Shown piece after piece: positions 5,916 to 49,014 of a DNA stretch of 64,000 nucleotides (within the stretch, counting starts at the first letter, position 1; each line of letters begins with the position of its first letter). Source of the DNA: Callorhinchus milii (taxonomy: Eukaryota). The translations under genes were made by a program, and so were the position numbers. The notes under the pieces are model-generated. The model ran no database searches. It saw nothing but the letters and a program-made list of their open reading frames with translations, and was not told where the DNA came from. The stretch covers positions 103,914,001-103,978,000 of the forward strand of contig NW_024704742.1 in assembly GCF_018977255.1 (NCBI RefSeq), read 5' to 3'.

Positions 5916-7032
5916 CACACCACCTCTACTTCGTCACGGCAAACGGCTTCTCTTCCAGCCCCCGCACTGTCTCGTGTACAGTTCCTCGGGGCTCTGTCCT
6001 CGGTCCCCTCCTCTTCACCCTCTACATGCTTCCCCTTGGTGACGTCATCCGCAGACATGGGGTAAATTTCCACATGTATACGGATGACACCCAACTCTCT
6101 CTCTCTGCCTCCACCCTGAACTCCAGGACTACTGGCGTCCTGACCTACTGCCTGTCCAACATCAAGTCCTGGACTTGGGCCAACTTTCTCCAACTCAACG
6201 TCAGCAAGACTGAGGCCCTCCTGATTGGCTCGCGCCAGCGCCTCCGCACCTCAGCCTCCGTGGCTGCACACTCAACCTCACTGAGCCAGTCAGGAACCTG
6301 GGTATCTTGTTTGACCCTGATTAATTCTTTCTCCCCCACATCCGCGCCATGACCGGCATTGCCTACCACGACCTCCGCAACATTGCCAGACTCTACCACT
6401 GCCTCACCCCTCAGGCTGCCAAAACCCTCACCCACGCATTTGTCAGCTCAAGGCTTGATTATGGGAACTCCCTCCTCATCGGCCTTCCCAACTCTTCCCT
6501 TCACAAGCTGCAGATCATCCAAAACTGCAGCTCGTGTACTCACGCACCAGGCTCCGTGACCCCATCACTCCCACCCTCGCCCGACTCCACTGGCTCCCCA
6601 TCCCCCAGAGGATTGAGTTCAAGATCCTCATCCTCACCTTTAAGGCCATCCATGGCCTTGCCCCCTCCTACCTCTCTGACCTGCTGACTCCCTACCAACC
6701 TGCCCGCTCCCTCCGTTCATTGGGCTCCGGACTGCTCCATGTCTTCCACCCGACTCGCCCTACCATCCGTGGCCGGGCTTTCAGCCTCTCTGCCCCCACA
6801 CTCTGGAACTCCATCCCACGTCCCTTCACCTCACTTCCTCCCTTGCCTCCTTCAAGGCCGGTCTCAAGACCCTTCTCTTCGATCGTGCCTTTGGTCTCCC
6901 TCCCACCTCCCTGCCTTCCCTCACCCCTACACCATCCCTCCCCCATGCTCGGGCACCGACACCTGACTGTTCAACGCTTTGGGCCGTCCTCCTGCCGTGA
7001 AAGGCGCTCTATAAATGTAATTTTGTTGTTGT
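5916..7032 (+). mobile_element. L2 LINE 3' ~1.1 kb fragment
   Basis: [20 protein letters not shown] and LHWLPIPQRIEFKIL motifs; (TTG)n tail. Confidence 0.9.
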
Positions 7033-8789
7033 TTTATACATAACCTTTTGAGCTCCACAGAAGTTGTCTCACAATACACACTTGGAAAGTCAAGCTGGGC
7101 AAAATATTATAACCCACAATGTGAAATTACAAGTGAGTACACATTTCTTGTACATTTGAACAGGCTCAAAATGTTTGTTGGGCTCAATTTTTTACAAAAG
7201 TGAATTGCAACATCTAGAATAAATGAGTGGAACTTTTAATTAAAGCAGAAATTAACATGAGGGTAATTACAAAATAAAATGCGCAATGTTTGAGAGCAAA
7301 GAATGTAACTTAAGAGGAACTGAACCCCTAAACACATAATTTAAAATTGACAATCATCATTGCATTGGATCACACTATCTAGATATAAAACAACAGTGTC
7401 AAAGGAATTATATACATTTAGTTCTACTGTACACAGATTTTTATAAAATCCATGTGATTAAAACTTTACATTAGAGCAGCACACTTTTGCTTCTACATTC
7501 ACCTGTTTATGAGAGGCGTTATACAAATGTAATTTGTTGTTGAGGTGCCTTGTTCTAATCTTAAAACCTTCAAGTTTGAAAAAAAAGTTTGACATGTTAA
7601 GCAGTGATTTAGTTGCTGAACAGCTGCGGCATTACTGTACATGTCCGCTTATATTTTAATAGGTTTTGTTAATGTCTGTTTGTCAAATACTTGTTCACAT
7701 TTCTGTTTACATGCAACCCTTAGAATATGGAATCAGTAGATTTCAAATATTTAATGCAAACTGTGCAAGACTAAACAGTAGAGAAATGTATAGAACCACA
7801 GACCATTTAATTTACAGTATTCAAAAAGGAACACTTTAAATTAACCTCAATTGGATTGAGTTTTTAAACAATTACCTGATTACACTCAGTCCTTTAAAAT
7901 GGTGTTAAATCTGCCTCAATTGGCCGCAGCTTTTGATTACTCTCGTGATTCCTGGGAAAAATATGTATGGAGCAACAGGATTAATCTCAAGTGTAATATC
8001 CTATGATCACATACTCCATTGACATTCACTATCCAGGCTCACAAGTGGAAGATGATACTTAAGTGAAGTAGTGAGTGATAGCTGGTACCTGTGGAACTGT
8101 ACTCCAACAAACTCCTCTTCAAGAGAGAGAGGCTTATATTTACCAAAAGGAAATAGGATATGAAGTGTAAAAAAACAAAATGTACAAACAACAACGTAAA
8201 ACAAGTAAAATTAATATAGTCAAAAGGAGACAAGGTGGGGAGAAATCCTTGGACACAAAGCTTTGATGTTTCTGCTTGGATAATAATAATCCTTGCATTT
8301 AATATAGCGCCTTATCACAGCTCAAAGCGCTTCACAGGGTATACTATATATATTCTATATATCCACATACACTGGGATAAACAAAAATACCAACTTCTTT
8401 TAGTACAATGAACTCCTAGCATTTTACAATCCACAGCCGGAAAAGTGGAAATAGACATTGAAATCCAAGAAGCCAAAACAACAACTGATGTGATCAATAA
8501 ATTCTTAACGGTCCTGTAGCTGGTTCCAATTTCAAGGCTGGAAGTTGGGGCATTGTTGGTTGTAATAAAGAGACCTCTCTTCTACATTGAGTCTATACTC
8601 TGTAGAATTTGCTTGGTGGTCAAAATGGAATAAACCTATCCATTCACTAGTATGCTCTCTCGTTTAGAGCAGATCGGAGCTATTGTTATATCACATAACA
8701 AGTAATTATAAAATAGCAGAGGCAACCCACCCTCCTATTGGTTGTGGACTGGTGAGCAAGACAAATCTTGTTTCCATTTCAGTAATATC

Positions 8790-22166: not shown

Positions 22167-22294
22167 ATTTTCCAGTGTTTCATCCAGTATAATTGCACCA
22201 TATGTAGGGACTCCCATCTTATACTCCTTCCAATCATCTAAAATATTTTCCACATCATCCCCTTTGCGAAGTAAAAACGGACAGTGATTGAAGA
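22167..22294 (-). CDS. DCP2: DCP2 exon 3 ([43 protein letters not shown])
   Basis: Starts after the non-canonical AC acceptor; 128 nt; ends AAT|GTAAGT; frame is continuous with exons 2 and 4. Confidence 0.96.
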
Positions 22295-24400
22295 GTTCAA
22301 CTGCGGTTAAGGAAAACACTAACAAGACGAGTTACATTGCATTTGACATTTGTTTTTTTTACAAAGGAAAATACAGCAACACCCAGTCAAAGTTGTATAT
22401 AAGTCTACATATTCTGTGACTGTCAAATAATTCTGAAAACACTTTATAGTCAATTTTTCTTCTTCCCATTTGAACCCCCACTCCCACCACAACCACCAAT
22501 TTTCTTTCCCTCCTCTGTTGAAGGTGCAGACGCATGTTGGGGTCCTTTAACACAGGTACTGAGTTCCCACAAGCACCTCATCAAAATTGTCATTTTTTTA
22601 AAGTCACAAGCCCAAACACCAGTCATTTATGAACGATTCATTCAACACATCATCGTCAAGTCCAATTACATCCTCACCCTTACATCTGATTACATGCAAT
22701 GAAGGATTGGCAAGGATCATTGGACAGGAACCAGAAATCCTGGTTGGGTTTTCTCCTCCTCAATCCAGAAGATTTAAAACCTGGATGGAGCCGCAACTGA
22801 GATCAGCTAACTCAGCACAAGCAAGTCTTGGTCTGTATGGACCAATATAATCCATACTGTGTATCCACTGTGTATCCACCCACTGATCCCCATCAATGAA
22901 TCCCTGATAATAATACTAAACAAAATTCATTGCATAATTTGTAGTGAGTTATTACACCCATTGATTCAGGGCTGTACGTTTTTGACATAAAATAAGTGAA
23001 ACACCAAGTGAAAATAATCAACCTTTCAAGGAAACTAATCTATGCCATTCCCAGAAAAATTGGTGATAACAAAAAGTGTCATGGAATAATACAAACATGT
23101 TATTGATGAGTAACAAAAGCACTGTAGAAGGGGCATTACATACAAACAACTAATAATTGTGGGCCATTCAGATTTCCACTTGAATACTTGTTTTTGGCTG
23201 TCGTTTTTAGAGGGACTAAAAATGAAATTATCATGATGCTGTGAATTGCCAGATAAAAAATAAAAATAAGGTATACTAATTAAAATAAATATTGATCTTG
23301 TATAGAATTAGACATCAACGGTGTGGAAGGATTCATTTCATAGTATATATTGTGAGATAGCATAGTTACAACTTGATTATTCAAAGTTATCTGAAGTGCA
23401 TCTTCCATGGACTGAAGTACTGCCACCCGCTTCATACAACGAGTTGTGTTAACATTTCATGTTTTGTCTCCAAGTTTCATTGGTCAAAGATCATGAAGAC
23501 AAAAAAGTTATTCCAAGATTAATCAAATCTATCAGTAACATCTTAAAGATAATGTTAGTGTCTGTAAAAAAAATGTGATGTGGGAGGAGTGAATCTCATC
23601 TAAGCATGTAAGATACTTAATGGTACAAATGGGGGTGAACCAAAAGTATTACTTCAAAAGTAGGTCAATAAATAAGATTAGAGGACCCCATGAGTGCAAA
23701 AAAATTAGAGCTGAGGTCAGGACAGCAATAAACATTTAGAATAATCTGCCAACATATACAATAGAGAAAATCATTTGGGGTCATTCAAAACAAGGTCAAC
23801 GGTAGAATACAATAAGCTTTGGTGGATGGGACAGCATTTCCTTACACTGTTACACAAAAAATGCAAAGCATCTCCAGTTGAGATGAAAACATTAGAGCCC
23901 CACTGCACTTCATACAGAGGTCCTTTATTTCAACTTTCTTTTTCCTCCATCTTTCCGTGCATTTGAAAAAATATGTCTTTTCCATGTATCAATAAAAAAT
24001 GAAACTCAACCAAATTTCGCATGAAAAACGTACAGCCACTGGGATTTTCTGACACAACCCTCCCAAAATACAGGCAAAACTGGCATCCAAACTTGCAATT
24101 CTCTTGAGTTACAAGGCCATGCAAAAAAAATCATTTGCTAAAGCTATACTTCAGGATAAGGTTTATAGAGCTTTATCCCAGAGTACTCCAGCTTCACATA
24201 CTACTTACATGCACTTGAAATTCTTCCATGCATTGGAACTGATCATTTGCAATGGCATTAACCAGACTAAAACTATTATTTGGAAGAAAAGTACTCCCCA
24301 GATTAACCTATAGTACTGCTGTAGTTCTAATGGAGACTTCCCATGATTTTTTCAATAAAGTGAATATTTTGCTGAAGTACAGCTATTATCAAAAGGATAT
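22295..24400 (-). other. DCP2: U12-type (minor spliceosome) AT-AC intron, DCP2 intron 2
   Basis: 5' end ATATCCTTTT; branch sequence TTCCTTAAC at 22306-22314; 3' end ...TTGAAC. Joining these termini gives in-frame G|TC (Val), collinear with the homologue. Confidence 0.95.
22730..22880 (-). mobile_element. LF-SINE-like ancient SINE fragment inside the U12 intron
   Basis: Reverse complement contains TGTGCTGAGTTAGCTGATCTCAG, a motif I recall from the LF-SINE consensus; related pieces at about 29915-30030, 46410-46530, 48460-48830, 54205-54300 and 9965-10200. Confidence 0.6.
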
Positions 24401-24552
24401 CTGATTTGGCAAAATCTCTTATCCCACACTGAGGCAATCCTGGTGTATTCTGCAAGTAGAAGTCCAAGTAAAACCAATGGGCCAGCTCAATCTGAAAGCA
24501 CACTCGAATCGCATTGTCCCTTTCTTCACTTGGAATGTGCAGAATGAATCGG
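24401..24552 (-). CDS. DCP2: DCP2 exon 2 (Box A domain; [50 protein letters not shown])
   Basis: Acceptor ttgtacag|C; 152 nt; peptide is visible in ORF 24327..24587; ends at the U12 donor G|ATATCCTTTT. Confidence 0.97.
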
Positions 24553-27258
24553 CTGTACAATAGATAAGCCGAATAATTACCCTTCAATATTAGTTGTTAT
24601 TGCATTATTTCCATTTCTAAAAATATTTCAACATCCTGATTAATATTCTATCACACTACAAATGCTTGCATTAACTGATTATCAAGCTTATCAGAATGAA
24701 ATCTAAAGACGTTGCAAAAGTTAGCATAAACTTTGATCAGATATCAGACAAGCATTATTGTTTTTGATCCCCCAAATAAATGTGTCTGCATTCCCAAAGA
24801 AGAATGCAGTGTAATATGGAAGGCTTCAAGAAATAAACAACTTAATGCCAAGTATGCAGAGCAACACAGGAGATTCCAAGACCAAGGAGACACCATATCA
24901 TACTTGCTGTTCAAATGAAAAATCTGACCTATTTTGCATACTGTTCAATGGGACATGCTAAATCCACACATGTTATAGAAACAGGCCTCATTTTATGATG
25001 GCTGTTCACAAGAAAATAATCTTGGTAGGATTTATGTAAGGATGAATAAAACATTAACAATTGCTAAAATTAGGCAATTATTTATGTGAACATTAAAGAA
25101 AACAATCATCTGTAAAAATGCTGTCTTAATTCATACATGTTTCTAATGCTTAAATTATGATACATCATACAGAAAAACTAAAATGTGAAATAGAGGATAT
25201 TAAATGACCTCAACAAGATACCAAAGAATGGGAACTTAACGTTTTCATAACTATTAAAAGGAAAAAGGCTAAACGTAAGATCCAAAAATGTGTGAACACA
25301 ACTATCCTGTCTCTTGCACAGAATAAAAATATACTTTTCTTTAAAAAACATACTGAACATACTGCAGGAAGACTGAAATCTGTATAAAAAAAACTTGGTA
25401 CCCATTCAGAGTGTGATTCAGTTCACATAAAAGCACTTAGCAGTATTAAAAAAAAGTCCAGTTATGGTCCATGTAAATGCATCTAAACCATATAAAATAT
25501 ACACCATGAACAACAAGAGTAGAACATTTTTAATTTTAAGCCTGTAACTAATAGCATGCATAACCAATCTTACTTTCTCTATCCAGATATTACATATTCT
25601 GTAAATGTACTAAAACTTACACAAAGTTTAATACAACCTATTCATCGCTGATCTACATTCACCTAGGTTTTGCTGATCGAATTTGGTTTACAGTGAATCT
25701 TAGTGGAAACTGAGCCAAAACACAGTAGTTGAAGAAACATCATTGAAGGAATACTCTTCATGGAGGATGGGCAAGGTAAGCAAGGTCTCCTTGGGACTGA
25801 GCTGGCTCCAAGGTGATGTTGCAATGGAATGACAGAATGGATTCTGTGGTGGTATTGGGTTCCTGAGGCAGGCAAGCCACAGTACTCAAAGGCACTAATG
25901 ACAGACCAACCAGCCAGGCTTGACAGGAAGACTTGGGAGAGGCATGGATTCTCCCACTCGGCTCCAACTAACCCTGCAAGCCAAAACCTTAACGGGTTGG
26001 GTGGTTGGTCCTAGAAGGACAATCAGCAGGAAGCTTTCCACTATGCAGATCCCTCATCCTTGGCTCTCGACAATTTGTGTGCACCTAATACTTTCCAGAA
26101 TTAGATAAGCAGTATTCACCCTTAGGAGGGAGAACTCAACTGAAAAAAAAACACCCTGTTAAACCCGGGAGTTGGCCAACAGTGGAACTAACAACTCTGT
26201 TAAACGTGGGATCCAGATGTGGCTAGAAAAGACCAGCTTTAATCCAAATACTAGGAAAATAGGAAGTCCTTACTCAAGAGTTTTTAATAATTCAAGTTTT
26301 TTTTGAACAAAGACCTCATTGGTAGAGCTAATACAGATGTCTTTCATCATGTTCATGAAAGATTTTGTGGCCAAGTTGATATGTGTAGATGTCTACATGG
26401 CATATAGTTTGCACATATAAACCTATAAGTAAGGACTTTTGATTCACCTGTATAAAGTCAGGAACCCACAAACAGAGGAACCAAAGTCACTTATATTCTA
26501 TGCTTAACAATTCATTTAATTATGGAGGCAAAATGAAATAGTTTCAAATGAATTCAATAAGCAGGCCTACAAAAGGCACGTCACAATCCTGGCAATATTA
26601 CTGTGTTCCTGTACTGTCAATGTCTGTTCTTTCTTCTTATGATATATCTCGAATCTCAGAAAACCTCAGTTGGGAGTTCTGCCTTCCTGGAGGAATGAAC
26701 AACGTACCCGCTCTCAAGCCAAATCTAACTGACTAAACACAGCAATGTAGCTCGACTATACTTTATATCATAGTTATCTACGTCAGGCTGCTCAGTGCAT
26801 GTTAGCTGACTGATTGGACTGTACAGCAGCAATTAATTCACAACCCTAACAGACACAAAAAACTGCAGCTACAATAATAAATTCACTTCTTCCTTGGCCA
26901 ATTTAACTGTTCATAACACAATACATAACATATTGCATCATATCATTTTATCTAGCACCATACCAGCTACCCTGTGACACCTGTTATGTTTAGATAGAAG
27001 TTCCACAATTTACCTTAATTAAAAGATTTTAAGAATAAAGATTGTAGTTCTGCAAGTCATCCCACATCAGCTAACAAGCATAAGCAACCTTCACTTAAAT
27101 AAAAAAAATTATAAACAGAATTGTAATTCTGGGGATCAGCTTGACACTAGCCAACAAGCATAAGCATACGTAACTTAACCAAAACTTTTTTTTATTCTTA
27201 ATACAGTAGGATTATAACAGCTATGTTCAATTTGCTTTTTAAAATCAAATACATGTAA

Positions 27259-27570
27259 AGATAATAATAATAATCCCTGCATTTTATAAAGCACCTTATC
27301 ATGTCTTCAAGAGGCGTCTCAAAGCACTTCACAGAATATACTGTAAAGTGAATTGACTGTATATTTTGTGGGCGAAACGCAGGAACCAATTGTGACAGCA
27401 GTCATCGATTGAGTGACCAAATTATTTTTAGAAAAGCAATTGGTCAATCAACTAACAACTGGGTTCCTACTTACTGCCAGGTAAACAGAGGCATGTGGAG
27501 TAAGGAAACTTGTCCAACATTTCACCCTGCCGGGAATCAAACCCATGTCCTCTCACTTGCAAAGTGCTCT
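27259..27570 (-). mobile_element. SINE copy in DCP2 intron 1
   Basis: Collinear with 61955-62329, with small deletions. Confidence 0.82.
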
Positions 27571-30126
27571 ACTGATACTGAACCAGGTTAGAATCTTTTT
27601 TAAATACTGACATAAACAGCATCAATAATAGATACTGAATATAAACACACTGTTTATATAACTTGATTTCATTTTATACACATCGACGATATTAAAATTT
27701 AGCCTATTAAGTATTACTTATTGGTTCTTTGATTTTATATATTCAGTTTCACAATGCTATTCCTAAAATATAAATTTCAATTGTTGATCAAAGTTGCCAA
27801 AAGTACATAAGGTGAACAGAAGAAACCACTGAGGCAAAGAACAAGTCAGTATTAATGATTTCTGGTTAATTAAAAGGGCTTCCAAACATAATTAGCATCT
27901 GGCAGAGGTTCAGCTTTTTTTTAAAAAAACATTTTTTCCCATTTACTTCAATCATTAGATTTCTGGAAGAATTTCCCTCACAATGTTTGTAGTTTCTTTA
28001 TTGGCTGTTAATTTCTTTGTGAGTCTTGCTCAAGGCAAATGTTATACAGGTTTCCCAGCGTCAATCCTTTCCCACACTCCTTAAAATGTCCCTTCTTTCT
28101 GCCACTCCCAAGTCTACTTGTAATTATAGTCTGATGTTAGCTATTTTGCCTATGAACCTGATCACCTGTGAAACTTCTGGATCACAAAATAAAATGAAAC
28201 CAATGAATTTCATATAACAAACCATAACAGAAAACATCTCAAAGCACTATAAAGCAGGGTAAGTGCTGCAGGCAGGGCAGCTAAGTGTTAAACAGCCAGT
28301 TTATAGCGTAGATACTAGTACAAACTTCCACCTTCACATTTAATAAGTTATCTCTGAAGCTGTTTCTAAATAAATGTCTGCAAGCAACAACAACAACAAC
28401 AACAAGATTCCATTTATAGAGCGCCTTTCACGTCAGGAGGACGTCCCAAGGCGCTGCACAGTTGGGTCATGACCCGAGCAGGGGGGAAATGGTCAGGGTG
28501 AGGGGAGGGAAGGGAGGGAGCGAGGAGGGGGGAAATGGTCAGGGTGAGGGGAGGGAAGGGAGGGGGCGAGGAGGAGGAAGAGAGTCGAGAGGGGAGCTGA
28601 AGGCACGGTCAAAGAGAAGATTAACAAACAGATTAATTGAGAAACTCCCCCAAGTAAATATACATGCTTTGGAAGTTTGCCCAGTCTGCACAAATTTGGT
28701 TTCAGGCAATTCCCAAATCTAATTCCCAGATTTTTTCCTCCTCGGTAAAGCATACAGGAAGTTCTTGATTAGTTCAACTGCAACCCATTGCTTTTGATGG
28801 GGAAGGAGAAATGAGGGAACCTTCAGCCTACATCTTATGCCTCCAATTTTTCTTTGCATTCTCAATCTGACTGGATTGAGTTTTCCTACATGCAGGAATT
28901 TAGACCTTCCTCCTCAACAACAAATCCATCTGTCTTCCTCCTATTTGGTTTGTTTGGTTTTTAACCCTACAATTATCAGTTCTTATTCATTTATGTTTAT
29001 TAAGCTCTTCTGCATCATTTAGGTTTTGTGTTTGATATTTTGGTAAAGTTTACAAATAAGCTTCAAACAGGTTGAAAGATTTGAATTTCTGTGGCTTAAA
29101 TTCACTTATTTTAGCCAAGCCTCAGTTCCTACTGCTCACTCTTGAAGCTTGGTAAATAATAATCATAATTTTTTCTCCCATTTCCATTATTTTCTGAACA
29201 TAAATACACAGCTGATAGAATTGAAATAAGGAAGCCTGAAAATCAAAAACAGAAAATTAACTCTGGATTGAATCACAAATTAACTGCATTACCAATTCTG
29301 ATCTCAATCTGTATGTTCTATTGGTATGCTAACATGCTATGCACCAAAGTGGAAATGACAACAGCTCATGCTCAAAAGTGCCCTATACAGCAAAATCCAA
29401 ACCAGTCTGTTAAGTGACACTGTAAAGAGAAACTTCTCAAGGAAGGTAGAAGAGGGAAAGGAGCCGAGGAAAAACAAGTAGATGCACGATAATAACTGAT
29501 AATAATAATCCTTGTTTTTGATATAGCACTTTTCACGGCTTCTAGACGTCTCAAAGCGCTTCACAGGATACAGTGGACTGTAAAGTGAATTGACTGTATA
29601 TTTGTGGGCGAAATGCAGCCGCCAATTGTGCACAGCAGTGTCCCACAAACAGTTGTGGATTGAAGTAACCAATTTATTATTGTTTTGTTTTCTTGAGGGA
29701 TTATTATCATAACTAAATATAGTATTCCCAAAGGACATTCTCATGCTCAGCGACATTTTCGTGCTAAAGGGTGGAAATAAAAATAAAAACAGAAACAAAC
29801 AAATAAGTTTGATGTGCTCAGCTGCTGATGGAAACAAACGCTAAGCTTCCCCTTGACAGCTCAATTTATAACATCACTGCCATCATGAAACTGAACTATA
29901 CAGATTTAGAAGAATCCAGTTGGTTTCAGTGTGTGCCCAGTTAGCTGATCTCACCTGGGGCAATAGTGGGCATATTAGGCTCAGGCAGGGAGAAGGATCA
30001 CCGATGTCATCTAATTCCTGTTAGCATCCAGAAGATATGTGGATACAAGACTCACACATGATCAGGTTCTACTGCAATTCTATCCACAAATACATAGCCT
30101 GCTGGCACTCACCTGCACATTATACA

Positions 30127-30427
30127 TTATAATAATAATAATAATAATAATCGTTGCATTTGATATAGCGCTTTTCACGTCTGGAGGACGTCCCAAAGCG
30201 CTTCACAGAACACACTGTAAAGTGAATTGACTGTATATTTGTGGGCGAACGCGGCAGCCAATTGTGCACAGCAATGTCCCACAAACAGTCGTAGATTGAA
30301 AATGACCAATCTATTATTGTTTTTTTTTTGGTTTTTTGGAGGGATTATTATTAGGCTCTGTGTGGAGTAAGGAAACTTGCCCAAGGTTTCGCCCTCTGCC
30401 TGGAATTGAACTCAGGTCTCTCACTTG
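30127..30427 (-). mobile_element. SINE copy with internal deletion (a second partial copy at about 29496-29706)
   Basis: (AAT)n tail, body and tRNA-head remnant present; central ~60 bp missing compared with the other copies. Confidence 0.8.
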
Positions 30428-31343
30428 GACAAGATATTAAAGAGCATAGAGCATCCAACTAAAGCAAGATGAATCAGCGTGCCAGGCCAGGGGTAGAAAA
30501 GCCCCCAAAAAACTGCATTCTGAAAATTGTACACTCAGTAATGTTAAAGGATTTTCACATTTTGAATATACAGTATAAAGAAACAGCAATGTGATCGCAC
30601 ATCAAAGGCTTGGCAGAACAAATGTATGATGCACATTTCTCTAACCGTGACAAATCACAGATAAGAATACAAACAATAAAGACAATAACAAAAATACACA
30701 GAAATTATATATACATATAAAAACAACCCCCGGCCCGGTCCCAGCCTGCGGCCCACTCTGATATACTATAAACCCTCACATGGAGAGAAACTCTATTCAA
30801 ACTTGCGCCATGTCTGAGGATCCCAAGGCACAGAGATTGTTGGGAGGAACTGAATAGCGAAATACAGCAACACGAGAGATACAGAGACCATTCAACCCCG
30901 ACACCTCCCTTCATCCCCACAACTTACTTCAATTTTAATGATGAAAACAACTAACCAGCGCCAACTCCATGACCGTCTCCCTCCCTCCCTCCCTTTGTGC
31001 TTTTCTCTCCTCACCAGATACTCACTCACATACACACTCACTCACTCACTCACATACACACACACGCGGGGGGGGAAGGGGGTAAAGAAGCGAAAGTGAA
31101 ACTCCCTTCACTCTGTCGCCATTTGAGAGCAATAACAGTGACTAATGTCTATGTATCGGGAGCGGCCTCCAGTGTAACTGGGTCTCCAACTCTAACCCCT
31201 GGGCTCGCTGCCGCCGGGCCGGGCCGGGCCAGGCCGGGCCTAGTGTGGTCTGACCGGGGGGGACTCTCGAGCCTCAGCCCCACAAACACAAACACGGCTC
31301 TGCTCTGGGGAGTGTGTGACTGCCCTCCCGGACTGCCGTGTAC

Positions 31344-31396
31344 CTGCACAGGTCATCCAGCACCTCTCCCGGGATCTCCACTCGCTTGGTCTCCAT
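31344..31396 (-). CDS. DCP2: DCP2 coding exon 1 (METKRVEIPGEVLDDLCS)
   Basis: Reverse complement reads ATG GAG ACC AAG CGA GTG GAG ATC CCG GGA GAG GTG CTG GAT GAC CTG TGC AG|GTA. Nearly identical to the vertebrate DCP2 N-terminus; 53 nt, phase-2 GT donor. Confidence 0.96.
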
Positions 31397-32460
31397 CCCC
31401 GGCCTCAGCCCCGGCCTCCCCCTCCCTCAGCCCCTCCCCCAGCCCCGGCCTCCCCCTCCCTCAGCCCCTCCCCCGGCCTCCCCCTCCCTCAGCCCCTCCC
31501 CCAGCCCCGGCCTCCCTCAGCCCTCCTCAGCCCCGGCCTCCCCCTCCCTCAGCCCCTCCCTCAGCCCCGGCCTCCCCCTCCCTCAGCCCCTCCCCCAGCC
31601 CCGGCCTCCCCCTCCCTCAGCCCCTCCCCAGCCCCGGCCTCCCCTCCCAGCCCTCCCCAGCCCCGGCCTCCCCCTCCCTCAGCCCCTCCCCAGCCCCGGC
31701 CTCCCCTCCCTCAGCCCCTCCCCAGCCCCGGCCTCCCCCTCCCTCAGCCCCTCCCCCAGCCCCGGCCTCCCCCTCCCTCAGCCCCTCCCTCAGCCCGGCC
31801 TCCCCCTCCCTCAGCCCCTCCCCCCCCCCTCCCCCTCCCTCAGCCCTCCCCCAGCCCCGGCCTCCCCCTCCCTCAGCCCGCCTCCCCTCCCTCAGCCCCT
31901 CCCCCAGCCCCGGCCTCCCCCTCCCTCAGCCCCTCCCCCAGCCCCGGCCTCCCCCTCCCTCAGCCCCTCCCTCAGCCCCGGCCTCCCCTCCCTCAGCCCT
32001 CCCTCAGCCCCGGCCTCCCCCTCCCTCAGCCCCTCCCTCAGCCCCGGCCTCCCCTCCCTCAGCCCCTCCCCAGCCCCGGCCTCCCCCTCCCTCAGCCCCT
32101 CCCTCAGCCCCGGCCTCCCCCTCCCTCAGCCCCTCCCTCAGCCCCGGCCTCCCCCTCCCTCAGCCCCTCCCTCAGCCCCGGCCTCCCCCTCCCTCAGCCC
32201 CTCCCTCAGCCCCGGCCTCCCCCTCCCTCAGCCCCTCCCCCTCCCTCAGCCCCTCCCTCAGCCCCGGCCTCCCCCTCCCTCAGCCCCTCCCTCAGCCCCT
32301 CGGACCCTCCCTCAGCCCCTCCCCCAGCCCCGGCCTCCCCCTCCCTCAGCCCTCCCTCAGCCCCTCCCTCAGCCCCGCCCCCTCCCTCAGCCCCCTCCCT
32401 CAGCCCCGCCCCCTCCCTCACCTCAGCCCCGCCCCCTCCCTCAGCCCCGCCCCCAGCTCC
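31397..32460 (-). repeat. GC-rich minisatellite, unit ~34 bp (plus strand CAGCCCCGGCCTCCCCCTCCCTCAGCCCCTCCCC), about 30 copies
   Basis: Directly visible tandem array that begins at the base next to the DCP2 ATG; G-rich on the DCP2 sense strand. Confidence 0.95.
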
Positions 32461-32590
32461 GGCCTCACTGCCTCCCGCGGTCCGGCCCCGGAGCCTCCCC
32501 GCCCGCCATTCCAGCTGCCTTTGTGACGTAGGACTGATTGACAGCGGCGGAGCCGAGCACAGCGCTGCCTGTGTGACCTGTCACGAGGGT
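32461..32590 (-). promoter_or_regulatory. Probable DCP2 core promoter (CpG-rich, TATA-less)
   Basis: The only non-repetitive CpG-rich stretch directly upstream of exon 1. Carries YY1-like CCGCCATT (32503-32510), CRE/ATF-like TGACGTA (32524-32530) and PBX-PREP decamer TGATTGACAG (32535-32544). Confidence 0.65.
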
Positions 32591-33277
32591 TGGGGGGGAT
32601 TGTGGGGGGAAGTTGAGGGAAGGGGGATTGGGAGGGGGATTGTGGGGGGAAGGGGATTATTGGGGAGGGGATTGTGGAGGGAAGGGAGGGGATTGTGGGG
32701 GGAAGGGGATTATTGGGGGAGGGGATTGTGGAGGGAAGGGGAGTTGGGGGAAGGGGGATGTGGGGGAAGTTGAGGGGGATTGTGGGGGAAGGGGATTATT
32801 GGGGGAGGGGGATTGTGGGGGGAAGGGGATTATTGGGGGAGGGGGATTGTGGGGGGAAGGGGGAGTTGGGGGAAGGGGGATTGTGGGGGGAAGTTGAGGG
32901 ATTGGGGGAGTGGGATTGTGGGGGAAGGGATTATTGGGGAGGGGATTGTGGGGGAAGGGGAAGTTGAGGGCAGGGGGATTGGGGGAGGAAGGGATTGTGG
33001 GGGAAGTTGAGGGAAGGGGATTGGGGGAGGGGGATTGTAGGGGGAAGGGGGGTTGGGGTAAGGAGGATTGTGGGGGGATTGGGATTGTGGGGGAAGGGGG
33101 AGGGAGATTGTGGGGTGAAGGGGGAGTTGGGGGAAGGGAGATTGTGCGGGGTGGGGGAGGGAGATTGTGCGCGGGAGGGAGATTGTGTGGGGGAGGGGGG
33201 AAGGGGGATTGTGGGGGGAGGGGGATTGTGGGGGGAGGGGGGAAGGGGGATTGGATTGGAGGGGTATGGGAGGGGGA
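32589..33277 (+). repeat. G-rich degenerate minisatellite (GGGGATTGTGGGGGGAA-like units)
   Basis: Directly visible; the plus strand is almost free of C. Confidence 0.93.
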
Positions 33278-36200
33278 AACTCCCTTCACCTTTTTGCATC
33301 ATGCCATTGGATGTGGACCGGACCTCAGTTTAACTGATGGACAGCACGTTTCACAGCACCAGTTCCAGGTTTGGTGCAAACAGCACTGATTGAAACCATC
33401 ACAGAATTTATTTGGTTAACTGGGTGTGTGATACATGCAGAAACCCATCATCCTGTTTAATGACGATTAAAGCCTCCCGACGTGAAAGGCACTATACAAA
33501 TGTAATCTTGTTGTTGTTGTAAAAGTATCTAATCCAGACTGACAGTTCCATGCACATGGAAATTCTTGTTTCTGGAATTGAATGCACCCTTGTTTACATC
33601 ATTCTGGAAAGTATTAGTACAGGTTGGCAAAGTGCGTAGGGAGTAGTGCTGGAGTTTAACCAGTTAGAACTGCATAGCTTGCCAACTGCAACTGCATGGC
33701 AGCCAATTTGCTCATAGCAATGTTTATTGCACAAAATTTTTATCACTGAATATTGCTCATTCTTGTTAGACTGCCGGAGGATCCAAATGAACACACTGAT
33801 TCTTATTTACACAAACAAGCTGCAATTTTGACCTTTGATTTTTACTTTTTTAGTTGTGTGACTTGGAATCTTAAAAATATACTTTTGAGAGTGAAGCTAA
33901 ACATGCAATTCTCGAATGTTTGGTCACTAAGTCTATTAAATCTATCCTATTATTTTCACATGAGGGTTGTGCAATAGTTTTGCTTTTGATTTAAAAACTT
34001 TTGTGATTACAACATTTCTTGTGGGAGCATATTGCATAATCTTACCCAACACTACAATGTGGCAACCCTATAAATTCATAATCCTGATTAATTATTACTT
34101 ACTGACTAATATGTATGTGTTCAGTAGAAATCAGCATGAGTTACATTGTACATTACATTAAGTGCTCTGGGACGCTACCCTGCGTGAGGGACGCTATATA
34201 AATTCAAGTTGTTGTGGTACTCCATAGAATTGTCATATACAGTTCTTCATTAACACTTTCCTATTAGAGTTTGGCTTCAGTAACGGCTATGGCTCTCACT
34301 GATGCTGGAGTTTCATCAGTGATTTTAGCTTTATTTTAGCCTGTCAGTTTTCCACATAATTTTCCCTTGTTACTTCTGTTACCCAAATTTTATTTTGGTC
34401 ACATGTAGAAATCTATCACAACGCTTAATACTGTAGTATTGAAACAGCCTGAGAGTTGTACATATGTATGACATCTACACGTGGAAATTTCCCTGTGTCT
34501 GAACTAGAATGCATACTCCCTGAAGCAATAATAAAAACTTGCATTTATACTTTCATGTAAGGTAAAGTTTTGGAGGAATGTACAAAGACAGGGTCAGCCG
34601 CTAAGCAAAGAAGAGGCCAAGAATGGGGAAGTGGCCATACGCATGGTCAAAAGTGGCGAAAGTTTAAGGCAGGACTTAAAGACAGATAGAGAGGCGTCAA
34701 CGGAGGGGCAGAGAGAGTAAGTTCGAGAGGTTAGGAGTATGGAATCTGAATGTTTGGCAACTGAAATTGCCCAGCAGAGGGGGTTAGTGGAGGGGACAAG
34801 TGGATGGGATGAGCAGAGGAGTGGCATAGGAGTAGAACTGAGAGATAAGAAGGTGCTATAGTATGAAGAGGTTTTCAGGTAAGGGTGAGGACTTTGAAAT
34901 CAATCCTCTGTGAGCCAGGGAATCGGTTTAACCATAGAAACCAGAAGAAGGACATTCGGCCCATCGTGTCATTGTGGAGTCTGGCAAGGACTGGGATAAT
35001 AGCAGTGAGGCTGGTGACCGTTTTGTCAGGTGAGGCAATCTGAGTTTGCTTAAGCAAACCATCTTGTTATCATGGCAAAGGGCCCTTCAACCATGGACAG
35101 TGTCTTGGCCTAAAGTGTTTGGCTCCAGTAATGGCTATGGCTCTCACTGATGATAATAATAATATTAATAATTCTTGCATTTGATATAGCGCCTTATCAC
35201 ATCTTCAAGACATCTCAAGGCGCTTCACAGAATATACTGTTAAGTGAATTGACTATATTTTGTGGGCAAAATTTTGTGGGTGAAATCCAAGTTTTATTTT
35301 CGTCAGCAAGGTTTCTGACAGAAATCTGTCACCATGCTTAACACTGTAGTATTGAAACCAGCCTGAGAGTTCCACATTTGTATGCCATTTACCCCCACCC
35401 GCCTTGCTCTCTCCCATGCTGCTCTCACAATGCTCATCAGATGATGTGGTGCCTAACTTGCCTCACCTGATGAGCTGCCACTGGGTATGGAGTTTTGTGC
35501 AGGTGAGGATGCAGGCAGTGGAGAGTTGGATAAATTGGAGCTTAGGGAGAACAGAGTTGCGTGTGTCAGAAAAGCCTAAATAGGAGGTAACAAAGAAACA
35601 CCCAGGTTATCTAATTCCAGAGAGTATTTGTTGCCCCAAAAGTATTATTAATAATTGAATAATATCCTTTCACATGAAGGACTCAGTGTTCAGGCAACAT
35701 AATCCCTTGTGACACAATTTATTTTTGCTATTCGTGATCTACCTTCCTTTTATTTAATCTATTTTGAGGTAGAAAAGGCACAGCTAGAGGAACTCCCAAC
35801 GATGCAGAAGCCCCAAATTCCACCTAGTATCAACGTGTTTTATTTTAAAATGCAGGACCGCACAGAATTGTGAAAATTCTTAAATTCAGTCTTAATTTAG
35901 AAGACAGTTTCCCAAAGACCTTTAAAATAATGAATTGTACATTCAGATGGATTTAAGGATTTTCAACAATTCTGCACAATTTAAAGTCAAAGGGTCATAC
36001 AGGCTAAAACTGCATGAAATTTCAAGCCCTTTATAATGTCTCGCAAAGAGTATTCCTGGTGGTTATTGAGAGCAAAAAAATTGCCCAGGAAGTTTTGTGC
36101 TGGAATGCTGTGGGCAGGTTTACAGCCTTGACGTGGCCTTTTGCATATGCTGGCCCATCGTTTCTCACTCAATAACAGCTTGTCCAATTATCCGCCTCCA

Positions 36201-38539
36201 TTTCTCCACCCTTATGCTCACCCATACTAAACTGCATCACACCAACCATTGCCAGGCTCCACTAGCTCCCTATTATAGAACGGATCGATTTCAAGATCCT
36301 CTCACTCGTCTACCAACCACTTCACACCCTGGCACCTCTACTGTTCAGCACTCTTGAGACGCTGCCTATGTGAAGGGTATTATGTAAATGCAAGTTGCTG
36401 TCTTTGCTTGTTATCCAAAATAAATAACAGAGGAGGGCAAATTCCATTGTTGTAACATATGTTTGTGTAGATTATAGCGTTCCTAAACACTAGGGTCAAA
36501 ATTCCATAACATGAACATAAAGGGATCAAGCTAATGCTTCAGTATGTTAGTTTTTCCAAAACGTCAACTGTGCCATATTTTGACTTGTGAAACGTTAACC
36601 TCTGGAAAGCTTCAGATTTAGTCAATCATAATTTTCAGTTGGAGGCTCTGTCAATGAGCCTGGCAATATATGACACATATAAATGCTGTTTTCAATGGGG
36701 TAAGCTACTGCAAAGGTGGTAGAAGGAGGAGTAAGAATGAAAGAGGTGGGGGGGTGCATTTGCTAGAAAAGTGGGGTTCACAGATGTGCCCCAACTAACA
36801 TTGGCTGAGAGGTTCCCCAAGTAGAAGAAAAGTCTCTCCATGGGTTGCGTTATGAAAGCCAGAATGAAAACAAGAACAGGAAGAGATCACAGCCAGGGTT
36901 AATGTTGCCAGCATTACCCGAAGAAGAACAATGTCATGGAAAAACAAAAGGTGAGGCAGGGGAATTTCTTCTGAACCACACAGAAGAGAACTAAACTGAA
37001 CTGGCCAGCTGTTACTATGGATATGCAGAAAGTTGGAGGAGTCAAACATCTGCACCGAGCCAGCTGGCCTGACTATGTTGCATAATCTCATGTGTCACAT
37101 CGATGAGCTTTATGATAATGTGGTTACGATTTTGCAGCCTGCCTCAATTATGATGGGTTCTATCAGTGCCTCCTGTGCAGCATTTCCCCAGGCCATGGAA
37201 TGAACTGAGGTAACCTCTCCCATTACTTCCTGGACTTCCTCCTTGAATGTGATGTGCAGTGCGAGAAGAGGAGGGTTTGTAATCTGGAAAAATGCAATCA
37301 AATTAGTTGAATAGCTTTCTTCTTTCAAATCTTTCGTGTGATCTTGTGACTTGTAGCGTCAATGAAAACTGCTGTCTGTTACAAAACTATACATTCAGCG
37401 GAGAAGACATTTTCTTCAGCGCTTAAATCTATAATGTGACTAATTCTGCTTCAATTTCACACAAGCTGGCTGACAAGTCCAAAAATACAATTTACAGTGA
37501 CTTAGCTCTTTATTTCTTACCACGTATAACTACAAAATCAAACTTCTCTGTCGCAAACGGCTTGTACAAATGCTGGAAGTGTGCTGTGTGCACGTATACT
37601 GAATCCATATCCAATGATCTCATCCCACAAACCAAGTTGTTCAATTTTAGGGCATTAAGAATAGGAAGTTGCAGCTAAAGATATTGGGAAATGAAACTTC
37701 TCACATCCACAGTGTGAGGACATACAATGCGTTGTCGAGTACTTGTACCTGTTGATTTTCAAATTTTATTGCTGATGTAACCTTCAAAGCTATCGTATTT
37801 CTTGATAATGTTGGTGCAGATCAAATATAACTGTTCTTATGTTTTGGTTATTTTCTTTGCAACAGACTTTTTCTGTATATGTGGGAAGGCACATATTTAA
37901 AGATCGTGACAAAAAGAAATTGAGGTTAGAAAAAATATTTACAAACAGTTGGAATGTGAAATTCTCCATCACAAACAGCTTTGTTACAGAGTCTATAAAT
38001 TCTTTAAAAATAATTGGTTAGATGCTTGAAAAAGAAGTTAAAGGGATGTGTGGATCAAGAGAATGGGGTTGAATTAGCTGGTTCATGTGCTGCCTTTTCA
38101 AACTCAAACCACGTTGAGTCCTCAGTTCATAAGGGAAACCCATTAGCTCTGCCGCTACTTAAAGTAGAACAGTTTGTGAGGTGGTAGGACATTAGCAATG
38201 AACTATTCAGAGAATTTGCAATTTTTGTGACCCTTGTGTTCTTGTGATAGAGCATTATTCTAGTTTGAGAGCTGGTTCATGTGATAATGGCTTCACTCAA
38301 CAGAAGTTTTTTTTGAAGTAAAGCTGCACACACTAGCATGCTTTGGGTCCCAACATTGCAATGAATGGGGGCTTTCACACCAGTGGCCAGTCGATAATTT
38401 TTGACTGTCTCAACCGTGTTTATCAATGAGATGAAAATGATCACACTTTGCACTCTTCATCCTCTTCTTCATTTATGCCTTGCTGCAACTTGTGACTATA
38501 AAAAAATTGCTTCCTAGAGATCAAAAAGCTGTGGATTCA

Positions 38540-39460
38540 ACAACAACAACAAGATTACATTTGTATAGCGCCTTTCACTTCGGGAGGACGTCCCAAGGCG
38601 CTGGACAGTGTACAGCATTTCAGACCCAAGCTGGGGTCGGGGGGAGAAGGGAGGGGAGGGGAAGGGGGATGGCTGATGGCATGGTCAAAGAGGAGGGTTT
38701 TGAGTTGGAACTTGAAGGAGGCTAAGGAGGGGGTGAGGCGGAGTGATTCGGGGATGGAGTTCCAGAGGTTGGGGACAGAGTGGCTGAAGGCTCTCCTATC
38801 AATGATGGGGCGGGTGGGTCAGGGGGCGTGGAGCAGGCCAGAGCCGGCTGAGCGGAGGGAGTGGGTGGGTTGGTAGAGGGTTAGGAGGTCGCAGAGGTAG
38901 GGTGGGGCGAGGCCATGGAGGGCTTTGTATGTGATAGATCCAGGATCTTGTATTGGATTCTCTGTAGGATAGGGAGCCAATGGAGTCGGGCGAGAGTGGG
39001 GGAGATGGGGTCACGGAGTTTGGTGCGGGAGAGGACACGGGCTACAGAGTTCTGGATTATCTGCAGCCTGTGGAGGGAGGAGTTGGGAAGGCTGACAAGC
39101 AGGGAGTTTGCATAGTCGAGCCTGAAGGTGATGAAGGCATGAACAAGAGTTTCAGGGGCCTGAGGGGTGAGTCGGTTGATGTTATGGTGGTGAGGGAAGG
39201 CAGAGCGGGTCGTGGCTTGAATGTGGGGGAGAAAAGACAGTTGAGGGTTGAACAAGACACCCAGGTTCCTGACTGGTTTGGTTAGTTGTAGTGTGCAAAC
39301 ACGGAGATTGATGCTGCCAGAGCCTGAGGTGCTGAGGCGCTGGCGCGAGCCAATCAGGAGGGCCTCAGTCTTGTTCACATTCAACTGTAGGAATTTGCCC
39401 TCATCCAGGACTTGATGTCCGACAGGGAGTCTGTCAGGAAAGCAGTGGTCCTGGAGTTGA
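38540..39460 (-). mobile_element. L2 LINE 3' fragment, same subfamily as 4158-5056
   Basis: ORF 38881..39384 is near-identical to the ORFs at 4134-4960. Confidence 0.9.
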
Positions 39461-39694
39461 AGATGGATATGAAAAGATAGGGTTCATGCTTCACATCAGG
39501 ATTTTGAGCTCACAGCCTGGTCTGACACTCCAGTGCAGTGGGGGTGCACTGCATTGTTGAAGGTGGCATCCTTAGAACGAAAAGTTCAATTGAGGTCCAG
39601 TTCTGCTTGTTCAGGAGGATGTCAGAGATCTCACAGCATTATCCGAAAAGAGGAGAGTTTCTCACAATGACCTGGCCAATAATTTCCAGATGGA

Positions 39695-40052
39695 ATCCTA
39701 TAGCTCATTGGTTAGAGCGCTCGCCTCACAAGCGAGAAACCTGGGTTCGATTCCTGGCAGGGCGAAACATTGGGCAAGTTTCCTTACTCCACACGCCGGT
39801 TTACCTAGAAGTAAATAGGAACTGGTTGTTAGTCAATTGACGGATCGCTTTTTCGGGGGTAATATTTCCATCAAAACAAAAGTAAATAAATTGGTCACTC
39901 AATCCATGACTGTTTGTGGGACACTGCTGTGCGTAATTGGCTGCCGCGTTTCACCCACAAAACATACAGAATTGCAGTATATTCTGTGAAGTGCTTTGAG
40001 ATATCTAGAAGGCGTGATAAGGTGCTATGTCAAATGCAGGGATTATTATTAT
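39695..40052 (+). mobile_element. Full-length tRNA-derived SINE with an L2-like 3' tail
   Basis: Pol III A box TAGCTCATTGG (39701) and B box GGTTCGATTCC (39744); body gctgtgcgtaattggctgccgcgttt; tail aaatgcaggg(att)n; multiple copies in the window. Confidence 0.88.
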
Positions 40053-40712
40053 AAAAAACTGTACATTCACTTCATGGTTGTTTGTGAAATTGCTGTGCGC
40101 ATTTTGGCTGCTGCATTTTTCTACAGATACAGCCATTATACTTTACAGAAAACTCAAAGTGTGAACAGATTTGAGGTGTTTCAACATGATACAGTGATAT
40201 TGATACTTTTATTGAAGAATTAGTGGAAGAGTTGCCCCACTCCCCACAGCCCCCTTACAATGTGTCAATGATTATATGGAGAAATATATTTTATTCCACA
40301 TGTTCACACTTATATTTGGCATAAACATCTAAAAAAAGCAAGAACATTGCTTTGCACTGAAATTCTCCAATGTTTAATTCTTATATTTGTTTGCTGTCAA
40401 TACCAACCCAGTGTTACTGGGGTCCACATACAAGCAGGATCCTCAAATTATTTTCGACAAGGAGGGTCCTTGAGAGCATCTAGTTTAAGGCACATCAAAT
40501 ATTCATCTGTCGCTAGTTAATGGAATTTCATGTTGATATTCTTTACCAGTTCTGCAATCCTCCTCCAATTTTGCCTACAAAATACACACAGTCGTATCAC
40601 TTTTACAGTGTATTCTGTGAAGCACTTTGAGATATCTCAATGATGCAACAAGATCCTATATCAAATGCAAAGATTATCAGTAATTATAAGTGAAATGTCA
40701 GCATCATTCTCA

Positions 40713-41866
40713 CAACAAGAACAAAATTACATTTGCATAGCACCTTTCATGTCAGGAGGATGTTCCAAGGCGCTGGACAATCAGTGTTTCAGACCCGAGT
40801 TTGTGGTCAGCATTGGGCAGGGTGGGGGGTAAGGGGGAAGGAGAGTAGCCGAAGCCACGGTCAAAAAGGAGGATCTTGAGAAGGCCTGGAAGGAGGCAAG
40901 GAAGGGGTGAGGCGGAGGGAGTGGGGGATGAAGTTCCAGAGGGTGGGACAGAATGATTGAAGCATGTCTGCCAATGAAGTTCCAGAGGGTGGGGCGCGTG
41001 AGACGGGGGACTTGAAGCAGCCCGGAGCCTGCAGAACAGAGAGAGCGGGCAGGATGGTAGGGAGTTAGGAGGTCGCAGAGGTTGGCGGGGAACAAGGCCA
41101 TGGTGGGCTTTGAAAGTGAGGACCAGGATCTTGAACTGTATCCTCTGGGTGATGGGAAGCCAGTGGAGTTGGGCGAGGATGGGGGTGATAGAGCCTGGTA
41201 CGGGAGATGACATGGGCTGCAGAGTTCTGGATGATCTGCAGCCTATGGAGGGAGAAGTTGGGAGGCCGACAAGCAGGAAGTTTGCGAGGTCGAGCCTGGA
41301 TGTTATGAATGTGTGTATGAGGGTCTTGGCGGCCTGCGGAGTGAGACAGTGGCGGAGCTGGGTGATGTTACGGAGGCAAGGAAAGGTGGAGCAGGGCATG
41401 GCATGGATGTGGGGTATGAAGGACAGTTGAGGGTCGAACGGGACCTGAGGTTCCGTATTACCTCTGTGAGATGCAGTGTGCATCCATGGAGGGAGCTGCT
41501 GTCAGTGCCCGACATATGGAGGCACTGACGGGAGCCAATCAGGAGAGCCTCAGTCTTGTTGACATTGAATTGAGTTGGACTCCATTGGCTCCCTATCCTT
41601 CAGAGGATCCAGTTCAAGATCCTGGTCCTCACCTACAAAGCCCTCCATGGCCTCGCCCCACCCTACATCTGCGACCTCCTAACCCCCTACCAACCCGCCC
41701 ATTGAGCTGAGAGGAGAGGCAGTGTCAGAGGATCCAGTGGTCGACAGTGTTGAAGGCAGCAGAGAGGGTGAGGAGGACAGAAGGAAGCAGAGAGAGCTCT
41801 GGTCCCAGAGGTTTAGAATGTTGTTAGTGACTTTGACCAGAGCTGTTTCCATGCTGTGGGCAGCAA
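40713..41866 (-). mobile_element. Composite L2 LINE fragment with an internal opposite-strand segment
   Basis: Minus-strand L2 peptides at 40752-41570 and 41700-41866; plus-strand L2 3' sequence at about 41577-41700. Confidence 0.85.
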
Positions 41867-43689: not shown

Positions 43690-44097
43690 GAGAACTTGTG
43701 ACATGCAATGCGGGTGGTGCGGTGAGAGCTCTGTGCATGAGAGCCCGTGTCGGGCCCTTTAAATGCATTGCGAGGGAGGGAGGGAGGGGGGGGATTGTGA
43801 CGCCCTCCCCCAGGCTGAGGGGGGGGGTGTGGGGGGGGTGGGGGCCCGAGAAGCAGCGCAGAGCAGCAGCAGCACAGCCACGACTCGGCTCCTCCCCGTC
43901 CCCGCGCCGCCGCGTTAGCTCAGCCCCACACACACACACACAACAGCACAGCCACAGCCACAGCCCAGACCCGAGCCCGAGCCCAGCACCGAGCACCGAG
44001 CACCGAGCAGAGCCTCTCCGCTCAGCCAAGGGAAACCCACCCCCACCCGCACCCCGCACCCGCACCCGCACCCCCCCCGTGCGGTGGTGGCTGAGCC
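43690..44097 (+). promoter_or_regulatory. REEP5 CpG-island promoter / 5' UTR with short tandem repeats
   Basis: CpG-rich, with G-runs and (GCA)n, (CA)n, (CACAGC)n, (CCGAGC/A)n and (CCCGCA)n arrays upstream of the ATG. Confidence 0.7.
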
Positions 44098-44215
44098 ATG
44101 GCGGCAGCGATGTTGGAGCGTTTGAAGAAGTTCCTCAACGAGGACAACGCGTTAGGCAACGCGTTGGGCAAAGTCGAGAGCAAGACGGGCGTCAAGAGGC
44201 ACTACACGGCGCTGG
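44098..44215 (+). CDS. REEP5: REEP5 (DP1/Yop1 family ER-shaping protein) coding exon 1 (MAAAMLERLKKFLNEDNALGNALGKVESKTGVKRHYTAL)
   Basis: Strong Kozak GCCATGG; 118 nt; donor G|GTGAGT; resembles human MSAAMRERFDRFLHEKN...KTGVNRSFIAL. REEP5 is preferred over REEP6 because of adjacency to DCP2. Confidence 0.9.
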
Positions 44216-44218
44216 GTG

Positions 44219-44650
44219 AGTGCGGGGCGGGGCGGTGCCGTGCGGGGCTGGGCAGTGCGGGGCAGTGCGGGGCTGGGCAGTGCAGGGCTGGGCAGGGCAG
44301 GGCAGTGCGGGGCAGGGCTGGGCAGTGCGGGGCGGGGCAGGGCTGGGCAGGGCAGGGCAGTGCGGGGCAGGGCAGTGCAGGGCAGTGCGGGGCTGGGCAG
44401 GGCAGGGCAGTGCGGGGCAGGGCTGGGCAGTGCGGGGCAGGGCTGGGCAGTGCGGGGCTGGGCAGTGCGGGGCAGGGCAGTGCAGGGCAGTGCGGGGCTG
44501 GGCAGTGCGGAGCAGGGCTGGGCAGTGCGGGGCGGGGCAGGGCAGTGCAGGGCTGGGCAGGGCAGTGCGGGGCTGGGCAGTGCAGGGCTGGGCAGTGCAG
44601 GGCAGGGCTGGGCAGTGCGGGGCAGGGCAGGGCGGGGCAGGGCTCGGGCA
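44219..44650 (+). repeat. G-rich tandem array of pentamer units (GGGCA / GGGCT / GTGCG) at the start of REEP5 intron 1
   Basis: Directly visible; starts within a few nt of the splice donor. Confidence 0.95.
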
Positions 44651-45534
44651 ATGCAGTGCACTGCGCACAGCCACATATGTTATGTTCCCTGATGTTAGAC
44701 TCTTCAGTTATTTCACCACAATAATAATAATAACAACAACAATAATAATCTTTGCATTTTGACACAGCGCTTTCCATTTCGTCCGGATGTCTTGAAGCTC
44801 TTCACGGGATGTGCACTGTAATGTGGATTGACTGTATTTTGTGAGCAAAGCGTTTCGTCCGGATTTAAATTGGACCGTCAACGACATCATCTGGGGAGAG
44901 GGGAAAAAAAAAGGCCATATTTTACTGAAAAGATTGGAGGAGGCATTGGTTCGAGCTGTACTGCGGCTGTTATCAGTGTTACTTAACGCCAGATGGGCAT
45001 TTTATGCTGTAACCTGAGATCGGGCTACGCCAAATAGTGTCTCATTTTACAGAAGTCTGCGAGGGACGCTAAGTGATTATATTTATAAACCAGGGCCCAT
45101 CGTGGCAAGATCTCTTTATGTAATTTGAGTTGGGGAGGTGGCCATTTCAACCTGATGTTTTTGCACTCAATAAGTTTTACCATTTAGCTTTCAAAATGCA
45201 GTCTCAATGATGTCCACAAAATATACAGTCCGTTCACTTTACAGTATGTTCTATGAAGCGCTTTGAGATGTCGCAAAGGACGTGATAAGGCACTATATCA
45301 AATGCAAGGATTATTATTATTCTGTCCAGGTTTTGCCTTTAAGCAGCGAGTTGGCCAAAAAAAAGCAAGACATTTCACTTCCACGTGGGATGTGGTGAAC
45401 ACTTCTTTGCAAGAGTTAAAATGTATTTTTAAAATAAGCGAGGTGTGACAGATTCTGTCTGGCCCCTTCGAGATGGATTTGCACTGTATAAAGAAATAAA
45501 TTGCTTTTAATTGTCACTTTGTCCTGTTTGTTAA

Positions 45535-48600: not shown

Positions 48601-49014
48601 TCAATTCTCGAGGGCATGCTCATTTAATATGCACGTAGCTGCTGGACATTAGATAGGATCAGGAATGGAGAAACTGGGCTGCGTGTTAAACTTCCCTCCC
48701 AGGCTGAGGGCCTCCAGTTATCCTCTGCCTCCTCACTGCTGCTTTGACTGAGGTAACTCAAGACAAATTAGGTATCTAACCTGAAACAATCCTGGTGCAT
48801 TTAGCTCTGTGATGTACAAGATAATGCATTAACTGATATTTGAGAACACCTACTTTCAGTTTACTTTAATGTTATTGTAATTGCTGCCAATGTATTGTCA
48901 TGTCAAGATCCTCATCTTCGCGAACAAATCCCTTCATGCTCTATAACTTCCTTACCTCCCTGACCTGCTTGTACCCCATTCCTCTGCCCCCATCCCCATT
49001 TGCTCAGCTAACAC

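Follow-up and report, generated by a model that had tools for sequence, protein, structure and literature searches.

A G-rich minisatellite directly before the DCP2 start codon of the elephant shark and an overlapping reading frame without an AUG start

The DCP2 locus and its tandem arrays

We analyzed a window of 64 kb (the whole stretch of DNA under study) from the elephant shark, Callorhinchus milii, in which DCP2 lies on the minus strand. The initial annotation had identified the gene as DCP2 and this identification was confirmed. The window matches 426 of the 427 residues of RefSeq XP_007895586.1 (P0011) exactly, the exception being junction residue 69, and this protein carries the Pfam domains DCP2 and NUDIX. 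The last DCP2 exon was 97% identical to a C. milii protein, compared with 78-83% for sharks and skate. The coding part of exon 1 (31344..31396, minus strand, 53 nt) begins with a strong-context ATG at 31396 and is followed by a GT donor at 31343, while exon 2 is located at 24401..24552 on the same strand.

At window position 12165, which corresponds to DCP2 residue 371, we observed Ala both in the window and in the RefSeq protein, and Gly in V9KRM2 (P0002); this difference is a probable allele. Intron 2 (24400 to approximately 22295, minus strand) has AT...AC ends, with ATATCCTTT at its 5' end and TTCCTTAAC near its 3' end, and judged by the consensus it is presumably a minor-spliceosome (U12-type) intron. 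In the gene models P0010, P0006, P0032, P0045 and P0046 exon 1 is joined to a site inside exon 3, bypassing intron 2, and the +1 frame of exon 1 becomes in frame with the catalytic domain. Head-to-head with DCP2 lies a gene with its start at 44098, which we take to be REEP5. Neither a Pfam search with two short exon pieces of this gene nor an Atlas look-up gave anything useful for its name. Many broken LINE-type reverse-transcriptase-like reading frames are present in the window (3500-7050, 38500-41500, 48900-51850 and 60094-60627).

The segment directly upstream of the DCP2 ATG (31397..32466, minus strand) is a tandem array, G-rich on the DCP2 sense strand, which we call array A. TRF reported it with a length of 1,070 nt, a period of 34, 32.1 copies and 82% matches, and a 12-mer alternates in it with a 22-mer. 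Its units are arranged head to tail and exceed the 7 bp from which such repeats are counted as minisatellites. The final partial unit stops at 31397, one base before the ATG, which begins at 31396. The 22-mer, GAGGGAGGGGGAGGCCGGGGCT, matched 20 times in the window with at most 2 mismatches (0.01 expected); 19 of these matches were exact and all were inside array A. The earlier description of the array as adjoining the start codon, rich in G-runs and free of ATG, pyrimidine tract and splice acceptor therefore held. Its sense strand is 69% G, with 158 runs of at least 3 G and 39 non-overlapping canonical quadruplex motifs of the G3+ N1-7 type. There is no ATG in it and no CAG or TAG, and its longest pyrimidine run is 3, so that we found neither the acceptor nor the tract of a U2-type intron ending before the ATG.

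Unit types of array A are arranged in ordered blocks, and its 5' end decays into GC-box-bearing, flank-like units. Further, of the 27 variant units, 15 deviate from the three main ones in homopolymer length alone. The 9-mer TGAGGCCGG was found in two copies in the whole window, one at each edge of the array (31399..31407 at the 3' edge and 32459..32467 at the 5' edge, both on the minus strand), which suggests that array A grew from local leader sequence. No Rfam match at the gathering score was obtained in 30500-34000, and a literature search, for which subscription journals were mostly outside the scope, gave no paper on array A among its top matches.

Beyond array A lies a unique segment of 124 bp (32467..32590), the only non-repetitive CpG-rich segment upstream of DCP2, with a GC content of 0.69 and a CpG o/e of 0.83. 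We infer that this segment, further called the core, is the core promoter. It contains sequence matches to what we take to be CRE-, CAAT-, Inr- and YY1-like motifs, among them a putative CRE-like TGACGT (32524) and a putative CAAT-like site (32540), and the putative YY1-like motif (32503-32511) holds an upstream ATG. The promoter-like motifs thus do lie on the far side of the array, as had been noted initially. Across the core GC skew flips from approximately -0.7 to +1.0, so that on both sides the G-rich strand leads away from the core.

On the other side of the core we observed a second G-rich array (array B, 32590..33276, plus strand), which is degenerate, has a 16-17-nt period, is unrelated to array A and points away from DCP2. 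Array B was absent from the initial annotation, as were the upstream ORF and the donor-like sites described below. It contains almost no C (skew +1.0), and the first AATAAA on the plus strand follows at 33466, a pattern as for a short divergent transcript. A third G-rich array, again unrelated (array C, 44211..44660, plus strand), is located in intron 1 of the neighbouring gene, just after its exon 1. This gene has short C-rich repeats at 43962-44075, just before its ATG, and the 450-bp G-rich array right after its first donor. We did not find any 14-mer common to arrays A, B and C. Among the 44 TRF rows of the window, all three arrays of at least 400 bp lie no more than 1.2 kb from one of the two start codons (P approximately 0.001, calculated post hoc and with arrays A and B not independent). 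For human VNTRs, enrichment is described in CpG islands, in 5' UTRs and in the regions upstream of genes (PMC8096271).

Upstream and overlapping reading frames of DCP2

A preprint describes for human DCP2 one strong-context overlapping ORF, the 3' end of which causes ribosome stalling and is required for the gene to be induced by the integrated stress response, and a legend in it terms the C-terminus of the encoded peptide highly conserved across vertebrates (bioRxiv 10.64898/2026.08.25.746704). The frame of the human overlapping ORF would be +1.

In the elephant shark the only ATG between 31397 and 33298 is located at 32509, 1,113 nt before the main ATG, with G at -3 and +4. Its ORF (32465..32509, minus strand) ends after 14 codons with the TGA of the 5' copy of TGAGGCCGG. 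The three frames of array A contain 19, 18 and 12 stops, and the nearest stops upstream of the main ATG in the three frames were found at -33, -11 and -67. The stop at -11 is the TGA of the 3' copy of TGAGGCCGG, and it interrupts the +1 frame before the main ATG is reached. Downstream of this ATG the +1 frame is open for 61 codons, up to a stop at approximately 24419-24421 in exon 2, and the other alternative frame closes after 13 codons. An opening of 61 codons is expected by chance with P = 0.13 (uniform codons) or P = 0.19 (codon usage of this gene). Selection keeping the +1 frame open was therefore not significant.

Because the TGA at -11 closes the +1 frame and the lone upstream ATG is followed by a stop after 14 codons, the leader contains no AUG with a frame running past the main AUG, and an AUG-started overlapping ORF is impossible in the elephant shark, wherever transcription starts. 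Stress control through an overlapping ORF, as described for human DCP2, is not possible in this species if it has to begin at an AUG. As possible CUG starts, 15 strong-context CTG are available.

We compared this arrangement with gene models of other species, and the upstream ATGs given here come from such models and not from measurements. Predicted isoforms joining exon 1 to exon 3 expose the +1 frame, with an upstream ATG at -29 in cat and whale, at -86 and -11 in bamboo shark and at -11 in sawfish. According to these models, use of the upstream ATG in these four species could give an enzyme without most of Box A. For skate, two models use starts in the other frame, at -85 and -82, and a further sawfish model has an in-frame start at -39. 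The C. milii model of this isoform (P0010) starts at an internal weak-context ATG, which is consistent with the lack of an upstream ATG in the +1 frame. Further, a metagenome scan gave one orthologous locus (L001), with a fish-like DCP2 exon 1, on a contig which ends 12 nt before the ATG (2556-2567). Both alternative frames are closed inside exon 1 of this locus, so the absence of the overlapping ORF is not peculiar to the elephant shark.

When array A was collapsed between its edge 9-mers, the upstream ATG came to lie at -53, in the +1 frame. This agreement has a 1-in-3 probability by chance, and the TGA would still stop the ORF. The stop that closes the +1 frame may predate array A. It is conceivable, though we regard it as rather unlikely, that the ATG at 32509 descends from the start of an overlapping ORF, that the stop cut it off and the stop-bearing piece was then amplified, and that stall-based induction was swapped for a length-variable quadruplex leader of 1.1 kb, possibly with CUG starts, while the 61-codon +1 frame survived.

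Transcription start and the leader

We modestly favour, with about even confidence, transcription starting in the core beyond array A, which would give an unspliced leader of approximately 1.1 kb. A start in the core is suggested by the motif cluster, the CpG density and the switch of GC skew that coincide there. It is further suggested by the lack of an acceptor in array A and by the shark and skate gene models, in which the leader would be contiguous over at least 82-86 nt. G-skew downstream of the start is described as a mark of strong CpG-island promoters that scales with first-exon length (PMC3787257), and YY1/Kozak-like motifs approximately 10 bp after the start are described for sponge promoters (PMC4773876). 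The long leader is disfavoured by the resulting first exon of approximately 1.2 kb, far above the human medians of 178-259 bp (PMC3787257), and by the cost that 39 quadruplex motifs would impose on the leader of a housekeeping enzyme. The skew argument is weakened, since AGGG-type microsatellites are found at human promoters without strand preference (PMC3566118). We did not observe homology between the back-translated shark and skate leaders and the core (95, 195 and 188 of 200 shuffles scored as high).

If transcription does start in the core, the following course of events can be proposed. The minisatellite would have been born at the locus and would have grown from a short stretch, rich in GC boxes, of the leader in DCP2 exon 1. 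Most transcripts would start near 32510-32550 and array A would be read as an unspliced leader. Ribosomes would meet the strong-context 14-codon upstream ORF first, and would then have to scan or re-initiate across G-rich, quadruplex-prone RNA up to the strong-context main AUG. Translational damping, if there is any, would be a tolerated by-product of repeat growth and not a tuned device. Array A is a promoter or leader minisatellite, probably a by-product of repeat growth at CpG islands.

The initial annotation had offered two alternatives, a quadruplex leader or an array that is itself a dispersed promoter. This was the right pair of candidates, and the core motifs, CpG density and skew modestly favour the leader. 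We give a lower, tentative place to the second, in which array A would be promoter DNA with Sp/KLF/MAZ-type sites, transcription would start at dispersed positions within it or near the ATG, and the mRNA would carry a few units only and no upstream ATG. The array could itself initiate transcription, as it contains 63 GGGAGGG sites and 4 GC boxes, together with 64 TG and 34 CG dinucleotides usable as starts, and the cell would be spared a costly leader of 1.1 kb. The promoter VNTR of XRCC5, which reportedly carries Sp1 sites, would be a precedent. However, the CpG o/e of array A is 0.39, compared with 0.83 in the core, CA and TA dinucleotides and Inr-like matches are absent from it, and the motif cluster of the core would then sit 1.1 kb from the ATG.

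Improbable, in our estimate, is a strong form of the leader reading put forward initially, in which array A would be a selected, length-variable rheostat of DCP2 translation acting through stacked RNA quadruplexes. Such a rheostat presupposes the long leader. The array adjoins the ATG, the predicted energy of its 170-nt pieces drops from approximately -37 to -48 kcal/mol to approximately -134 to -140 kcal/mol once quadruplexes are allowed, and in humans a VNTR overlapping a 5' UTR exon of MXRA7 is described as correlating with expression (PMC8096271). However, with quadruplexes allowed the 3' 170 nt of array A gave -133.7 kcal/mol, compared with -149.6 +/- 18.0 kcal/mol for 30 base shuffles of this one piece. 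The shuffled sequence folds as well or better; quadruplex optimisation was therefore rejected and a special quadruplex brake is not supported. Nor did we find support for undescribed regulation in which copy number tunes dosage, as unrelated G-rich arrays are present also on the far side of this promoter and in the first intron of the neighbour. Neither the 12 nt preceding the ATG in the teleost locus L001 nor the leader peptides of shark and skate show any trace of the array. For the unique leader, special structure was likewise rejected (z = 0.76).

Very improbable is a start in the core with array A skipped by splicing to exon 2. Two putative donor-like sites fit GTRAG, namely GCA|GTGAGG (32463..32471, minus strand, donor at 32468) and GAG|GTGAGG (32416..32424, minus strand, donor at 32421, in the degenerate 5' end of array A). 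The upstream ATG lies 41 nt from the first donor, which gives phase 2, the same as exon 1; with this donor the upstream ORF would continue in frame into exon 2 and yield an alternative N-terminus, and a skate model (P0005) has an upstream-ATG N-terminus joined to exon 2. However, such phase agreement has a 1-in-3 probability by chance, and none of the 4 C. milii proteins in the cluster has such an N-terminus (3 start in the main frame of exon 1 and 1 at the internal ATG of exon 1). Since the same splicing event would remove exon 1 too, it cannot be the sole route. The alternative N-terminus of sharks (P0003, P0031, P0018) had no counterpart in 22250-32600, where the best scores were 18-20.

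We consider it equally improbable that the length of array A is an assembly artefact: the homopolymer-only differences in 15 of the 27 variant units are of a kind that long-read error can also produce, so that unit-level detail may include such error, and the C. milii record P0012 (A0A4W3JFW7), which is without the first two residues, may point to a region that is hard to assemble, its source assembly possibly having broken where the array ends. However, the array has ordered blocks of unit types and degenerate edges, the window contains no N, a repeat of 1 kb should be spanned by long reads at 68-fold coverage, and collapse of repeats is a more frequent assembler error than expansion. The published chromosome-scale assembly, from which the window would derive, relied on 68-fold coverage with SMRT reads and on FALCON, Quiver and Pilon (PMC8302630).

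Significance and known systems

We see array A as a natural experiment rather than an unusual repeat. If the long leader is real, ribosomes would have to pass more than 1 kb of quadruplex-prone RNA to translate a core mRNA-decay enzyme, and the locus would test how long and how structured a scanned leader can be. The overlapping ORF without a start codon is a better-grounded regulatory point than a quadruplex brake, and the absent start of this stress-responsive ORF is the testable addition made here. Neither the elephant shark nor the one teleost locus appears able to make the DCP2 overlapping ORF, which sets a bound to the vertebrate conservation put forward in the legend of the 2026 preprint (bioRxiv 10.64898/2026.08.25.746704). 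The elephant shark DCP2 leader would offer a ready comparative reporter pair.

Among known systems, TYMS carries a 28-bp repeat in its 5' UTR. Other human minisatellite VNTRs are described in a 5' UTR exon of MXRA7 and upstream of CSTB (PMC8096271). Array A shares with such promoter and 5' UTR VNTRs its GC-rich tandem units, its GC-box-like sites and its position at the 5' end of a CpG-island gene. Unlike them it extends over approximately 1.07 kb and ends one base before the ATG, and it is known here from one allele. NRAS reportedly has an RNA G-quadruplex in its 5' UTR. Canonical motifs are found on the sense strand both in 5' UTR quadruplexes of this type and in array A, whereas in array A there are 39 motifs in tandem, predicted from sequence. 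Similarly to the GC-skewed (Class I), R-loop-prone CpG-island promoters described in PMC3787257, the non-template strand downstream of the proposed start is G-rich, but in the elephant shark tandem arrays flanking this start produce the skew, which is known from sequence alone.

A further comparison is with human DCP2 itself. It is the same gene, a strong-context upstream ATG is present in both species, and in C. milii an overlap of 61 codons with the main ORF is seen for the +1 frame, the frame of the upstream ATG in the cat and whale models. In contrast to human DCP2, the upstream ATG of C. milii is 1,113 nt away and its ORF ends after 14 codons, with a TGA at -11 standing before the main ATG in the +1 frame.
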